A DNA stretch of 64,000 nucleotides from Octopus vulgaris (lineage: Eukaryota): the NCBI GenBank assembly GCA_951406725.2, contig OX597819.1, positions 80,910,001-80,974,000 of the forward strand, read 5' to 3'. The notes under the pieces are model-generated. The model worked only from the letters and a program-made list of their open reading frames with translations. It did no database searches and was not told where the DNA came from. Below are positions 10,463 to 63,254 of the stretch, one piece after another. Made by a program: the position numbers and the translations under genes. Each line of letters begins with the position of its first letter. The first letter of the stretch is position 1.

Positions 10463-10499
10463 CAGTACCGGTTTCAGTCATTTGAGACCTTTTCAACTG
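10463..10499 (-). ncRNA. Minimal hammerhead ribozyme, U3-A8 core variant
   Basis: Minus strand: cag-TTGAAAA-GGTCtcaaatGACT-GAAA-CCGG-TA-ctg. Confidence 0.7.
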
Positions 10500-10941
10500 T
10501 AACAATTAAATAATTAAATTTAGAAAAATTAAAAGAAAAGTGTTTTTAAAAGAATATTTGTATAGTGTTCAAGTATAACACCTACGCAAATTCTATAAAC
10601 AAACCTTTCAATGAATTGAACAGCTACTGCTAACCGCCACTGACTACTCAAAATACGACGATCAAGGCACTCCCAAATTCTTGCCCCACTTTTTCTTCTT
10701 CTTCTTCTTCTTCTTCTTCTTCTTCTTCTTCTTCTTCTTCTTCTTCTTCTTCTTCTTCTTCTTCTTCTTCTTCTTCTTCCCTACCAAGAATTCACAACGA
10801 CCTCGAACCCACAAATGTAAACAAGAGAGACAGAGAAAGGCAAAATCAAGGAAAATGCCACTTATATTTGAACTCTATACAAATATCATTTTTAAAAACA
10901 CTTTTCTTTTAATTTTTCTAAATTTAATTATTTAATCGTTA

Positions 10942-10978
10942 CAGTTGAAAAGGTTTCAAATGACTGAAACCGGTACTG
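10942..10978 (+). ncRNA. Minimal hammerhead ribozyme, U3-A8 core variant
   Basis: cag-TTGAAAA-GGTTtcaaatGACT-GAAA-CCGG-TA-ctg. Confidence 0.65.
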
Positions 10979-11050
10979 AAATGTTCTTTATAAAATTATT
11001 TTAGCATTTTCTATCTTGACTTGATTTTTCATATATATATATATATATAT

Positions 11051-11452
11051 TTAGTGTAGGAAGAAATGGAGCTGAACGAAGATTTAACAAAATTCCTTGA
11101 GCGTTTGTCGAAAAGCTTGCTGTGCATTTTGTTGGACAATTAAGTTCTTGAATTTTCCTGAAGAGAAGGCTACAAAATGGACTCCTTATTCAATCCGAAT
11201 TAGGGACTTTGCAGCCTTTGAAACATATGTAGAAAATAATAAAAAGGAATTTTGTTAAATCTTCGTTCAGCTCCATTTCTTCCTACACTAAATAAATATA
11301 TAAAACTTCAAATTTCCGCACTAAGGCCACGGATTTTAGGCCCCATGGTCGTAACCTCAACCGTGCTTTTTCTGTTGTGATTTTTGCTACCCAGGTATCG
11401 GTTATCATTTGAATTATCCGTAATAAGATAATTCATTTATCTACTTCAATAA
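11051..11452 (+). mobile_element. Penelope-like pseudo-LTR with inverted 5' piece (11051-11098 / 11244-11291)
   Basis: Perfect ~47-bp inverted repeat bracketing a hammerhead; (TA)n on both sides. Confidence 0.7.
11152..11237 (+). ncRNA. Type-I hammerhead ribozyme, canonical core
   Basis: attttc-CTGAAGA-GAAGGCTACAAA..TTTGCAGCCTTT-GAAA-CATATG-TA-gaaaat. Confidence 0.85.
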
Positions 11453-11859
11453 TATATATATATATATATATATATATATATATATATGTAATATGAATAT
11501 ATGTATGATCCGATGCCTCAATGCATGAATCTATCTATCTGTCTGTCTGTCTGTCTTTTGTGCGTGCACGCACGTGTAATGGTCGAACTGGTGCACAGTT
11601 TCTGCTTATTAGTCTTCAATAAGGCTTGACTTCGGGCTTTTCAAAGACATAATCGCCTAAGGTTATTACATGAAATCACTTATGTAGCTAGAAAATGCGC
11701 CGCCAAGTGCAGCCATTAAATTTGCTCTCTCCACCCACGCCGGGGGAACAAATCTATACAGTTTACACATAACAGACACTCCCATATAAATGCTACCTCC
11801 ATGTTAACGCTGTTCCGGTACATGTTGAAGCGTGATAAGATCTGGAATGCGTAGCGAAC

Positions 11860-12285
11860 AGGCGTAGGTGTGTGCGAAAAAGCAAGCTACCCGAAACACA
11901 TAGTTTCGGATTTAGTTCCACAGTGTGGAAACTCGGGCAAGAGTCTTCTACTGTAGCCTCAGGCCGAGAAAAGCCGTATGAATGCATATGGTAAACATAA
12001 ACTGAAATAAGACCGTAGAACAGTGTGTGTGTGTGTGTGTGTGTGTGTGTGTGTGTGTGTGTGCGTGCGTGTCTGTGTCTGTGTCTGTGTGTCTTTGTTT
12101 TTCTCGCCATCACCGCTTCGACAGTGTTGGTGTCTTTATATCCCTTAGCGGTTCGGTAAAAAGGAAACCTGTAGGATAAGTACTGGACTTTAAAAAACGT
12201 CCCTGGGTCGATTTGTTCGACTAAAACCCTTCAAGGCGCTGCCCCAGCATGGCCGCAGTCATATGGATGAAGCAAGTGAAAGAGA
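11860..12285 (+). mobile_element. SINE family A, diverged
   Basis: Degenerate head, (TG)n spacer, tail ccccagcatggccgcagtc. Confidence 0.75.
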
Positions 12286-12601
12286 AGATTCCGCCAATTT
12301 TCTTCTTAAACAGAATATTTATACACCTAACGTTAAACCTAACGTTAAACCGATTTCAAACGACTGCTAGATCCTGAGTTGTAATGTTTGCTCAATTTTA
12401 TGTTTGTCTTTCTTCGTTTACCGACAAAAGGTAGAGTGGGGAAATAAAATCAACACGAATTAACATGATTATTGCACTTTTTTAATTGGTCACGAAGAAA
12501 GAAGGGTATTGCAAAATTGAGATATATACATATCTATCTATCTATCTATCTATCTATCTATCTATCTATCTATCTATCTATCTATCTATCTATCTATCTA
12601 T

Positions 12602-59990: not shown

Positions 59991-60910
59991 GCTGTTCAGT
60001 TGTGACCGTGGAAGACAGTCACTGACCACTGCCCATACAAAATATCAGCAATGCCCATGCATGTGGTTATTGCACCCGCAGTTGGCTTCACCCGGGTTCT
60101 CACTCGCAGCTTCCATACTCTCTGCGATCCTCCTACTCAGCCGGGTATCGGAAAGTCGTTTCACCAGCGATTGCAAGACCTAAATTTTTTAGGCCAATAA
60201 AGCTTGCACAGCACCTCACAGACCTTTTCCCACCCTATTGACATTATCCAGAGACAAGCCAGAGCAAGGTAACATTGCCAATGTGGGTTGCTGTCTCAGG
60301 GATATGGGAGTACTATGATTTCAGGTGCAAGTAAAAGATCCCAAAAATGTTTAATGACATTCCTTACATATCTGGTTTCATATCAAGGTAACCTTTTCCT
60401 AGAGATATGCTATAAGAAAAGCTGAGGGATGCTTCACTTCCAGTGGTCTTCCAACACACCAGACACGAAGCTCGAATTTCTGAGGGTCCCTGCTATTGCT
60501 AGATAGTCGTTGAACACACACAAGGTTCATCAGTCTTTTTGATAAGTTCTGTTTTTATTCGTGCTCGATTTCTAGCGACCCACATCGCCAGGCAAGCCCA
60601 CTGGAGGTGCCGGTTTAGTCGCCGACGACCCAAACATGCTACTGATTGTACGGATTCCATCCATGTTACCAGTAGCATTCTTGTGACCAGGCTATACGTA
60701 TATATACGCATGTCTTTGATCAATTCCGCAAAGTAAAGAGTTGGCTTTATGGAGGCAATTATACGGATAAAAATTAAATGTAACAACTTGGGTTTGATAT
60801 ATATATATATATATATATATATATATATATATATATATATGTGTGTGTGTGTGTGTATATGTATATATATGTATATATATGTATATATATATATATATAT
60901 ATATTGGATT

Positions 60911-60961
60911 TTTGTCAGTGAACAGGTCGCGGTCTTAAAGCGACGAAAATATTTTGACAAA
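60911..60961 (+). ncRNA. Minimal hammerhead ribozyme, G3-C8 core variant
   Basis: tttgtca-GTGAACA-G-GTCGCggtcttaaaGCGAC-GAAA-ATAT-TT-tgacaaa. Confidence 0.65.
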
Positions 60962-62507
60962 TTAAACTTAAATGTTGAAGTGAATCGAACGGTTTTGTGT
61001 GTTTCTTAAATGGCTTACAAACACCTTCCACGCGGCAATTGTTTTCGTTTCAGCACACGATCTCAGATCAAATCACTTGCTATGCAAGTACATCTCTGTA
61101 ATATATATATATATGTATATGTATATATATATATGTGTGTGTATGTGTATGTGTGTGTGTGTGTGTGTGTGTGTGTGTGTGCGTGCGTGTGTGTGTGTTT
61201 ACGCAGTAGTTGGTGTCGTGTGAAGTTGGCATCAGTGATCAATGTAAATAGTGACGTCATTCATGTAAAGTGGAATGTTTTCAACTGGCTGAGAAAATGT
61301 TGTGAACGTGGCAACGTAAAGGATGCGGAGAGTGATGTTGGGTACCGGGCTAATATGAATTCGGAAGTAGCGGCAGAGTCCAGTCGGAAAGAAAGATTTA
61401 TAAAAAAAAAAAATGAATCATTAGACTGGTGAATAAAAGAAGAGTTCACCAAAAGAAGTCTACTCATTTCAGAGGTAAATGAAAGGACTCTCTAAATTAT
61501 ATTCCATGAATGCTTACTCGCCTCTTAATTAAAGTTCTTTTATTTTGCTTATACTCAACGGTTTTAGTTGTTATTGTCAACTCTTCTGACTTATTAAACT
61601 ACCACCGCTTTCCGCTCTAAACAAGTTGGTTTGCTGAGCTACGGACACATACTGTTGAACCCGTGTTGAGGGTAGCATCGAGAGGCCATAGGGTTCAGCA
61701 ATATATATATATATATATATATATATATATATATATATATATACATATACATACGTACGTACGTATACACATATACACACACGAACATATATATTTGGAT
61801 ATGTATATATATATATATATCCTTATGTTTGCACCTTGTGCGTTAACCATTGATAACATTAAATGAAACTGATAATGTTTTAGGTTTTTCATGTCATTTA
61901 AATTAATGTGACTATTCCGCACTTGTTTTCCGAAAATGGAACGGTTGGGGGCGAGTTTGTGGTGGGATGGCTCCTATTCTAGCAACCTACGTACTGTCTA
62001 TTTCACAGTAATGCTTTTTGCAGAATGAAAAAAATACTCCACTTATCACTCAATCCACCTCCGACTTCCTCTAAGTTTATACATTACATTTATTCCTTTG
62101 AAGTTGCCGCTGGACCTCTACTTTCCCTTTGTCTATTTGTCCCTCTATATGTCTCTATCTGTCTCGCCATCTTCCTCTTGAGAAAAATACGTCAGACAGA
62201 TAAAAAGAGGGTTAGGGAGAAAAAACAAGCGTGACGGGGGGAGAATGACAGATGACATACATACTTACATACATACATACATACATACATACATACATAC
62301 ATATATATATAATTAAAAAGTCAATAAAGAAAAATGGAAACGAAAAATTTAAAAGATGCTTGTTTCATTTTATTTGTATTACAATTGGAAAAGTAATGGA
62401 AATTAAACGATAAAAACATATACCTATAAGAACAAATATAAAAGGAACCGAAACAAGTATAAAAGGAACCACATCAACAAAATAACCCCCAAATATCCAA
62501 AAATATA

Positions 62508-62587
62508 TTCTACATGTGTTTCAATATAACAATATTTTAGAATCATTAATAATTGTAACATCTAAAAATGTAGGATCGCTTCAAGAA
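62508..62587 (-). ncRNA. Degenerate hammerhead ribozyme
   Basis: Minus strand: ttc-TTGAAGC-gat..att-GAAA-CACATG-TA-gaa; core and stem II decayed. Confidence 0.35.
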
Positions 62588-62811
62588 AAATAAGTATATT
62601 TTAGTCTTGAGTTACGAAATGACTTATTCGAGGACTATTAGCTAGTATTGACTCATCGAATTTATTTGAAAAAATATATGTATCTTTTATAGAGACTTAG
62701 TAATTTTAATATTTCTATTATTGAAAACAAGTGGATGTATTCCACTGAAACTAGGTAAATATAAGCCTTCGAACAGAGACGTCAGTGGCGACACCTGCGG
62801 GGTCTGACTGT

Positions 62812-62853
62812 GCTACATTGACAAGGGGCAATACCCCGAAACGCGTCTGTAGC
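62812..62853 (+). ncRNA. Minimal hammerhead ribozyme, U3-A8 variant, intact
   Basis: gctaca-TTGACAA-GGGGcaataCCCC-GAAA-CGCG-TC-tgtagc, at the tip of a longer hairpin 62761-62903. Confidence 0.85.
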
Positions 62854-63213
62854 TGTCGGACTGGCAGTGTGAAGCGGCTGACCTCCCTTGTTCGAAGGTT
62901 ATAATGGATACAGATCGTGTATCAATAGCTATCTTAAGGCGGTGGCCTTATGGAGCTGACCAGCGGCAGCGATTATTCTTATATCTATAAGAATGCCATA
63001 TTAATATGGCGATAACAATTAATTTCCAGTAAACGCTGTCGTAATCTCTTTTATAGAGACTTAGTAATTTTAATATTTCTATTATATATACATACATATA
63101 TATATATATATATATATATATAGTAGGGAAAAATTTTTTTTAAAATGCAGAATGCTCAAATGAAAGAAAATTTTAATAAAATGAGAAATTGATAAAATAT
63201 ATAAATATATATT

Positions 63214-63254
63214 TATTCAACCGGTTTTCGTCATTGTATGACTTGTCAAGAATA
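63214..63254 (-). ncRNA. Minimal hammerhead ribozyme, U3-A8 variant
   Basis: Minus strand: tattc-TTGACAA-GTCATacaATGAC-GAAA-ACCGGT-T-gaata (one base off the canonical register). Confidence 0.6.

Follow-up and report, generated by a model that had tools for sequence, protein, structure and literature searches.

Six hammerhead ribozyme motifs with an exchanged tertiary base pair lie in a stretch of 64,000 nucleotides of Octopus vulgaris DNA (assembly GCA_951406725.2, contig OX597819.1, positions 80,910,001 to 80,974,000 of the forward strand), which is called the window below. In all six, the pair between core positions 3 and 8, which is C3-G8 in the canonical CUGANGA box, is the Watson–Crick pair U3-A8. 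The motifs are probably type I hammerheads that were inherited with U3-A8 by two related Penelope-like families (A and C) and one retrozyme-like family (B), are predicted to be cut as dimers, and have a 3-8 pair that is likely to be under long-term, leaky selection. In the same genome, related repeats with all four Watson–Crick pairs and with half-swapped forms likely record the stepwise exchange of this catalytic pair.

The six U3-A8 hammerheads

The motifs, with coordinates in the window, are as follows.

10463..10499, minus strand: family A hammerhead, type I, within an inverted copy; U3-A8 core 10496-10490; CCGG palindrome; predicted cut after GUA, 3′ of 10466 on the minus strand
10942..10978, plus strand: family A hammerhead, type I, within a sense copy; U3-A8 core 10945-10951; predicted cut 3′ of 10975
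42668..42705, minus strand: family A hammerhead, within an inverted copy; U3-A8 core 42702-42696
42932..42969, plus strand: family A hammerhead, within a sense copy; U3-A8 core 42935-42941; predicted cut 3′ of 42966
62812..62853, plus strand: family B hammerhead, type I; stem I of 6 bp; U3-A8 core 62818-62824; stem II of 4 bp, starting with G-C; CGCG palindrome; predicted cut after GUC, 3′ of 62847
63214..63254, minus strand: family C hammerhead; U3-A8 core 63249-63243; GAAAA-CCGG-UU; stem I of 5 bp; predicted cut simplest after GUU (63219)

The first-pass annotation had reported six U3-A8 cores, and all of them are present, three on each strand, the positions that it gave being for the most part left-hand motif boundaries in plus-strand numbering. 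The layout common to the six is a stem I strand, U3 U4 G5 A6 N7 A8 A9, stem II, GAAA, a 4-nt palindrome, U16.1, N17 and the second stem I strand. The first-pass annotation had also described G5, A6, A9, the GAAA box and the stems as retained, which is right for the fold: stems I and II and a palindromic stem III are found in all six motifs, and families A and B have U4, G5, A6, A9, G12, A13, A14, the A15.1-U16.1 pair and H17. It is not right in two details, as the copy at 63214 has one additional A in its GAAA box, and family A has a stem I of just 3 bp, followed by a mismatch, and starts stem II with G·U. This first stem II pair (10.1-11.1) is G-C in families B and C and also in A2, a sister of family A. 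For family C, an alternative register of the predicted cleavage site would place G17 at the cut.

A strict type I descriptor recovered five of the six motifs, with an average of 0.025 strict matches in shuffled sequences (n=40), and a wider descriptor recovered all six, a palindrome of at least 4 nt occurring in none of its shuffle matches (n=30 shuffles). When two copies were folded together, pairing through the palindrome gave a double hammerhead that lay 4.1 (A), 5.3 (B) and 11.3 (C) kcal/mol below two monomers. The six motifs are described here as predicted self-cutting type I hammerheads within mobile repeats. An Rfam search of the window (E<=5) returned 225 matches, and no hammerhead family appeared among the 150 listed, which were microsatellite-driven and of miRNA type; the window is rich in microsatellites, and these also dominate the output of a repeat finder run over its whole length.

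U3-A8 is the inherited state of each family

The four motifs at 10463, 10942, 42668 and 42932 belong to a single family, A, and represent two insertions, each with a sense and an inverted copy. DNA searches gave 506 candidates for family A, 1,660 for B and 1,086 for C, of which 40 each were scored; the loci fetched are the nearest copies, the window's own included, so that the sample is biased. U3-A8 was carried by every full-length match in these loci (32/32 for A, 35/35 for B and 39/39 for C). Exact genomic searches with bases 3 and 8 left free covered families A and C. Family A had 169 matches, with U3-A8 in 100 of the 100 listed and no copy without U3 found by this pattern, and family C had 447, with both U3-A8 and the additional A of the GAAA box in 100 of the 100 listed. 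Family B rests on the fetched loci; in assembled contigs of four sequencing runs (with four organism labels), other letters at its positions 3 and 8 all stayed at or below 5%.

As U3-A8 is fixed both in the fetched loci and in the exact matches, it is an inherited state. The reading of U3-A8 as a sporadic mutation of a CUGANGA consensus, which the first-pass annotation had named as the result that would undo its proposal, is ruled out by the uniformity of the copies of A, B and C.

The carrier elements and their relationships

The window's elements that carry the six motifs are the following.

10374..11053, no strand assigned: family A insertion, Penelope-like, 5′-truncated; inverted piece at about 10374-10578; sense piece, containing a CTT expansion, at about 10572-11053; flanked by TG/TA microsatellites; recognised by BLAST to longer members
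42580..43022, no strand assigned: second family A insertion, 5′-truncated; inverted up to about 42826 and sense from 42827 on; set within a TA microsatellite
63122..63854, minus strand: Penelope-like element of family C, 3′ end; 98.8% identity with the copy at locus L099; followed by an assembly gap
62683..63085, plus strand: family B retrozyme-like element; 364-bp non-coding unit at 62722-63085, with 39 bp of its 3′ end repeated in front of it; a long self-paired hairpin prolongs stem I

Families B and C sit tail to tail in one TA microsatellite (63083-63122), spanning 62683-63854 of the window.

Longer copies of A and C have frames for a reverse transcriptase (RT), a CX4CX2C linker and a GIY-YIG endonuclease (EN), which end about 620-790 nt upstream of the ribozyme. 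Domain matches come from these longer members and not from the truncated copies of the window (RVT_1 in L098, GIY-YIG in L100 and L103), and the CX4CX2C linker between RT and EN is present in every aligned row that covers that stretch. Partial tandems forming pseudo-LTRs, an inverted truncated copy and a microsatellite target were all found for A and C elements, and the family C copy at L099 carries tandem ribozymes with a period of 4,605 bp. The CX2-5CxxC linker of Neptune is common to Nematis as well, and a sense plus an inverted copy in a microsatellite is an arrangement described for Penelope-like elements (PMC8557442). A and C resemble the EN-containing elements with a Cys linker of the Neptune/Nematis type both in their domains (RT, CX4CX2C linker and C-terminal GIY-YIG) and in the way they are inserted (partial tandems, inverted truncated copies and TA microsatellite targets), and differ from them in that the 3-8 pairs are non-canonical throughout; by such features they are candidate members of these clades (PMC8557442).

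Adjoining one family A copy, at L003:1885-3159 on the minus strand, is a 425-aa frame that resembles a PIF1-like helicase and is probably a Helitron fragment.

The family B element includes no open reading frame of at least 90 aa in the list for the window. Its units follow one another head to tail in partial tandems, to which an inverted copy is often added, and a sister of B forms a four-copy array with a spacing of 360-362 bp. Non-LTR retrozymes have non-coding, self-paired units of 170-400 nt that are repeated head to tail and contain a type I hammerhead, and on sequence features family B fits this class. Metazoan elements of this class share with it the non-coding self-paired unit, the type I hammerhead and the head-to-tail arrangement, with mussel units of 350-390 bp against 364 bp here; unlike them, family B has a U3-A8 core, occurs mostly as partial tandems with an inverted copy, which is the footprint of Penelope insertion, and is known here from DNA alone (PMC7229834; preprint 10.64898/2026.07.22.740005).

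The first-pass annotation counted three independent families. This does not stand for A and C, whose proteins are 53-56% identical and whose ribozyme regions are 65% identical over 128 nt; by these comparisons they are related Penelope-like families, and they do not count as independent origins of U3-A8 because both belong to one Penelope clade. No DNA similarity between B and either A or C was detectable around the ribozyme, and no link of B to a specific Penelope family was found in comparisons of the ribozyme region or the tail. A shared 3′ tail of B and the Penelope families was considered and set aside as unconvincing, with one of 48 comparisons at p<=0.02.

It could be argued that U3-A8 arose independently from C3-G8 in three unrelated families and was fixed in each by selection for catalysis. 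The absence of DNA similarity between B and A/C in the ribozyme surroundings and the tail makes two origins possible, and a family with C3-G8 and U3·G8 is related to the A/C clade more remotely. Against three origins, A and C share a clade with families D and E, all of which carry U3, and the superfamily of B has U3-A8 at the base of all its three groups on the best tree, with C3-G8 nested. Separate origins in A and C are formally possible, given a backbone support of 81-84 in the protein tree; three independent ones are very unlikely, and inheritance of U3-A8 is preferred.

The 3-8 pair across the genome

The pattern N3-TGAN-N8-A-G-N{5,15}-Y-GAAAC-NN-GT-H was searched in the 2.8-Gb genome with the bases at 3 and 8 varied and the reversed pattern as control. 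It gave 9,544 matches for U3-A8 (control 120), 903 for C3-G8 (45), 197 for G3-C8 (50) and 2,288 for a purine at 3 with a pyrimidine at 8 (255); by hand count, the 100 of these 2,288 that were listed comprised 79 A3-U8, 14 A3·C8, six G3-C8 and one G3·U8, and seven of the 14 A3·C8 rows end like an abundant unrelated repeat. From these figures, A3-U8 is estimated at roughly 1,800 copies (extrapolated) and G3-C8 at about 150 above control. The census ratios are not genome totals because an abundant C3-G8 family with an additional A after A9, which has 20 matches in 943 kb of partly overlapping loci, falls outside the pattern. For the same reason, a tenfold genome-wide excess of U3-A8 over C3-G8 was dropped, and C3-G8 may well be the commonest 3-8 state overall.

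The A3-U8 and G3-C8 examples that were fetched mostly have stem I and the CCGG palindrome. An endonuclease frame of the same clade, about 50-60% identical to family C, ends 185-350 nt upstream of them. A3-U8 and G3-C8 are, by these sequence features, real hammerhead folds, some G3-C8 matches being chance or decayed ones. At locus L194, the motifs at 716 (plus) and 780 (minus) form a single inverted insertion in which an A3-U8 and a U3-A8 copy face each other and have identical stems II; the flank upstream of the A3-U8 side is rearranged. Among 43 hand-picked subfamily representatives, the 3-8 pair is UA in 18, CG in nine, AU in seven, GC in four, UG in four and another in one.

How one pair gives way to another can be read from trees in which related families differ at 3 and 8. 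In the retrozyme tree (25 rows of units, with these two positions masked), the earliest branches in each of the three groups are U3-A8 members, and C3-G8 is nested on the best tree. The branching order in one group is U3-A8, U3-A8, C3·A8 (93.6/99) and C3-G8 (90.8/95), the last two being joined with 96.5/99, so that on sequence the C3·A8 mismatch family lies between U3-A8 and C3-G8 under either rooting. In the assembled contigs, only C/T at 3 and A/G at 8 exceed 2% for a C3·A8 retrozyme; neither this nor the contig result for family B bears on cleavage. In another group a U3·G8 family stands beside U3-A8 copies with weak support. The endonuclease protein tree of 46 rows, in which L160m4742 and L193p5012 were disregarded as probably mislabelled by nested insertions, has supported groups A+E (U3-A8), D (U3-A8 and U3·G8), J (A3-U8) and H (A3-U8 and G3-C8), with a backbone support of only 81-84. 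A midpoint-rooted DNA tree of group H, with positions 3 and 8 masked and 22 of 34 rows kept (at least 150 nt aligned to L204), places A3-U8 among G3-C8 copies at 89% identity, together with one G3·U8 copy.

Sister families have thus switched from pair to pair at least three times. From these alignments, the 3-8 pair does covary across families, and the sister families that exchange it support long-term selection on it. The natural A3-U8 and G3-C8 families, which the first-pass annotation had not noticed, are stronger sequence evidence for such selection than U3-A8.

The distribution of pairs could also be the product of pure hitchhiking, in which the 3-8 states are neutral accidents of the masters that happened to amplify and A+T-biased mutation gives U3-A8. 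Copy counts do reflect a few masters, the genome is A+T-rich and mismatch families exist. However, an A+T bias does not yield G3-C8 families, and the finding of four Watson–Crick pairs, two of which need double transversions, together with at least three sister switches, is unlikely without selection for pairing, so that this explanation is already largely refuted and hardly credible.

In nearly all G3-C8 matches, N17 is A17 and not C17. Since a 3-17 pair is expected to trap the hammerhead core, this fits avoidance of a pair that would trap G3; it comes from one lineage and is hence a lead only.

Probable selection for cutting and its limits

The model favoured here proposes that two copies in tandem, or in a read-through transcript, would pair through the palindromic stem III, and that the paired copies would be cut after N17, releasing RNA of unit length. 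In family B, the 364-nt monomer would circularise, and a Penelope enzyme acting in trans would then copy it. The 3-8 pair would have to be Watson–Crick for full activity, its identity being free, and would change by single-base steps. Lineages in which the pair is a wobble or a mismatch could spread for a while, if cutting is helpful and not strictly required, and lasting lineages would restore some Watson–Crick pair of whichever kind.

A number of observations weigh against inherited ribozymes held by selection for cutting. Mismatched states are not rare: U3·G8 had 784 matches (control 103), close to the 903 of C3-G8 under the same pattern, with two multi-copy groups of young copies in about 27 and about 29 of the 100 rows listed (hand count), and C3·A8 had 338 (control 79), with one young family in 12 of the 100 listed. 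The census covered the eight of the 16 combinations that join a purine with a pyrimidine, and the 43 rows used for covariation were chosen from the census searches, so that a shuffle test on them is inflated and their count describes the sample. AU tests are compatible with the opposite rooting of the retrozyme ladder (p 0.12), which makes the direction of the ladder insecure. The ribozymes of the window have flaws of their own, namely the G·U at 10.1-11.1, the short stem I and an A17 able to trap U3 in family A, which by combining U3 with A17 does not evade the 3-17 trap, and the additional A in the GAAA box of family C. In the autonomous families D2, D4 and D5 (L159, L160-L163), a U is left unpaired where stem I meets position 3, or a base has been lost at the cut site; D4 and D5 have U3·G8 in addition, and all three still include young full-length copies. 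Minimal Penelope ribozymes cleave weakly in vitro. Ribozyme-dead Penelope RNA from Anolis was inserted normally in vitro, with no reads ending at the cut site (PMC11167929).

The same observations bear on the proposal, made from the double change at 3 and 8, that selection for catalysis is at work. The covariation of the pair across families upholds it in part, but the selection is not strict, as U3·G8 and C3·A8 families have amplified, and the published insertion of ribozyme-dead RNA tells against it further (PMC11167929).

An alternative is that the fold is kept for a role other than cutting, such as protein binding or packaging, or that cutting is near-dispensable; the 3-8 pair would then covary for the stability of the fold, and many families, A and C included, would be weak or dead ribozymes. 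The amplified mismatch families, the flawed junctions of D2/D4/D5 and C, a C at position 4 in eight of 20 copies of the abundant C3-G8 family, and the Anolis mutants, which still insert in vitro although cutting needs protein (PMC11167929), are all as expected on this account. It is less easily reconciled with a pair that forms in the active conformation and is not seen in ground-state structures, with the presence in nearly all G3-C8 matches of A17 and not of C17, which is expected to trap G3, or with the lack of variation at U4, G5, A6, A9, A13-A15 and U16.1 among the 43 rows, a result that was, however, imposed by the search pattern. A role without cutting is therefore considered unlikely, if clearly less so than the two alternatives above, and inherited hammerheads under leaky selection for cutting are the preferred explanation.

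Other hammerheads and elements in the window

When the window was scanned widely with any base allowed at 3 and 8, all 11 distinct matches had a Watson–Crick pair. Besides the six U3-A8 motifs, they include the following.

60911..60961, plus strand: G3-C8 hammerhead; core 60918-60924; stem I of 7 bp; additional G after A9; stem II of 5 bp; AUAU palindrome; one relative, L222
11152..11237, plus strand: canonical C3-G8 hammerhead; core from 11158; long stem II; CAUAUG palindrome; inside a 250-bp repeat
32205..32308, plus strand: canonical C3-G8 hammerhead; core from 32209; 13-bp stem II; CACGUG palindrome
34172..34206, minus strand: canonical C3-G8 minimal hammerhead; core from 34202; additional A after A9; CG palindrome; very abundant repeat family

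The G3-C8 motif is a second family, apart from the G3-C8 clade found with the genome pattern. The 250-bp repeat (11051-11300) has a 57-bp inverted end, directly adjoins family A and has relatives in L084, L120, L050 and L070. The stem II loop of the hammerhead at 32205-32308 contains an expanded ACT/ATT repeat, and no relative of it was found among the fetched loci. The minimal hammerhead at 34172-34206 also occurs in L033, L190, L231, L159, L215 and L184; the copies of this repeat with C instead of U at position 4 (eight of 20 in the fetched loci) are apparently an amplified subfamily. An abundant short repeat, seen in purine3/pyrimidine8 rows ending GAAACAAGTA and near 14830 in the window, has a stem-loop followed by GAAAC-AA-GTA, like the 3′ half of the family A ribozyme without an intact first box, and is possibly a decayed Penelope end.

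A near-complete LINE lies at 18543-22449 on the plus strand, its translation being read as a CCCH-finger-like first frame followed by APE endonuclease and reverse transcriptase frames. Fragments at 27557-28153 (minus), 51532-52876 (plus) and 12765-13634 (plus) bear a resemblance to a transposase of the mariner type, to a second protein of DNA transposons and to the C-terminus of a LINE.

Relation to known hammerheads and significance

Covariation of C3-G8 to U3-A8 has been described in several natural ribozymes that are active in vitro (Perreault et al. 2011, PMC3088659), and about 1,300 U3-A8 matches are known from Penelope-like elements of Schistosoma (Cervera and de la Peña 2014, PMC4209133). 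U3-A8 alone is therefore a known variant, here inherited by related families. The U3-A8 hammerheads of Cercyon in Schistosoma mansoni and the minimal Penelope hammerheads share with the octopus ones the type I fold in a terminal repeat, the palindromic stem III implying dimers and the U3-A8 core, as well as pairs on opposite strands 100-700 bp apart. The octopus adds A3-U8, G3-C8 and amplified U3·G8 and C3·A8 families, none mentioned in the consulted portion of that paper, and A-C are without an additional nucleotide after A9, C having instead the additional A in its GAAA box (PMC4209133). The survey of natural core variants likewise includes the U3-A8 covariation and calls a U13a insertion in GAAA likely tolerated, but in the portion consulted names U3-A8 alone for the 3-8 pair and gives no family-level path between pairs (PMC3088659).

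In the Penelope hammerhead of the Poseidon element PAc of Anolis, C3G or G8C abolishes cleavage and the double mutant restores it partly. G3-C8 is engineered there and a natural family state here; the PAc ribozyme depended on protein, and insertion in vitro could do without it (PMC11167929). No published report of natural A3-U8 or G3-C8 was found in a search whose scope excluded figures, most supplements and the study of variant Penelope ribozymes by Lünse et al. (2017), the likeliest source of one. That a single genome has all four pairs and mobile intermediates between them is a useful extension, possibly unreported before. In its fullest form, to which somewhat less than an even chance is given, the proposal is that one Penelope clade and its retrozymes sampled all four Watson–Crick pairs, that the A3-U8 and G3-C8 families are the first natural ones and active ribozymes, that mismatched mobile intermediates have been preserved, and that A17 was needed first for G3.

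As the first-pass annotation foresaw, a search built on CUGANGA would miss the U3-A8 copies, and in the octopus genome such searches miss at least 11,000 motifs; claims of a retroelement without a hammerhead therefore need all four pairs to be tested. Natural covariation with intermediates is available here for a tertiary pair known mainly from crystallography and engineered mutants, and the mismatched mobile families, if true, would make the fitness path of such a catalytic pair readable. Sister families that differ at 3 and 8 are close (retrozymes with C3·A8 and C3-G8 are 94-97% identical, and Penelope ends with A3-U8 and G3-C8 are 89% identical), and such near-identical sisters allow a direct test of the amount of cutting on which the spread of Penelope elements and retrozymes depends.

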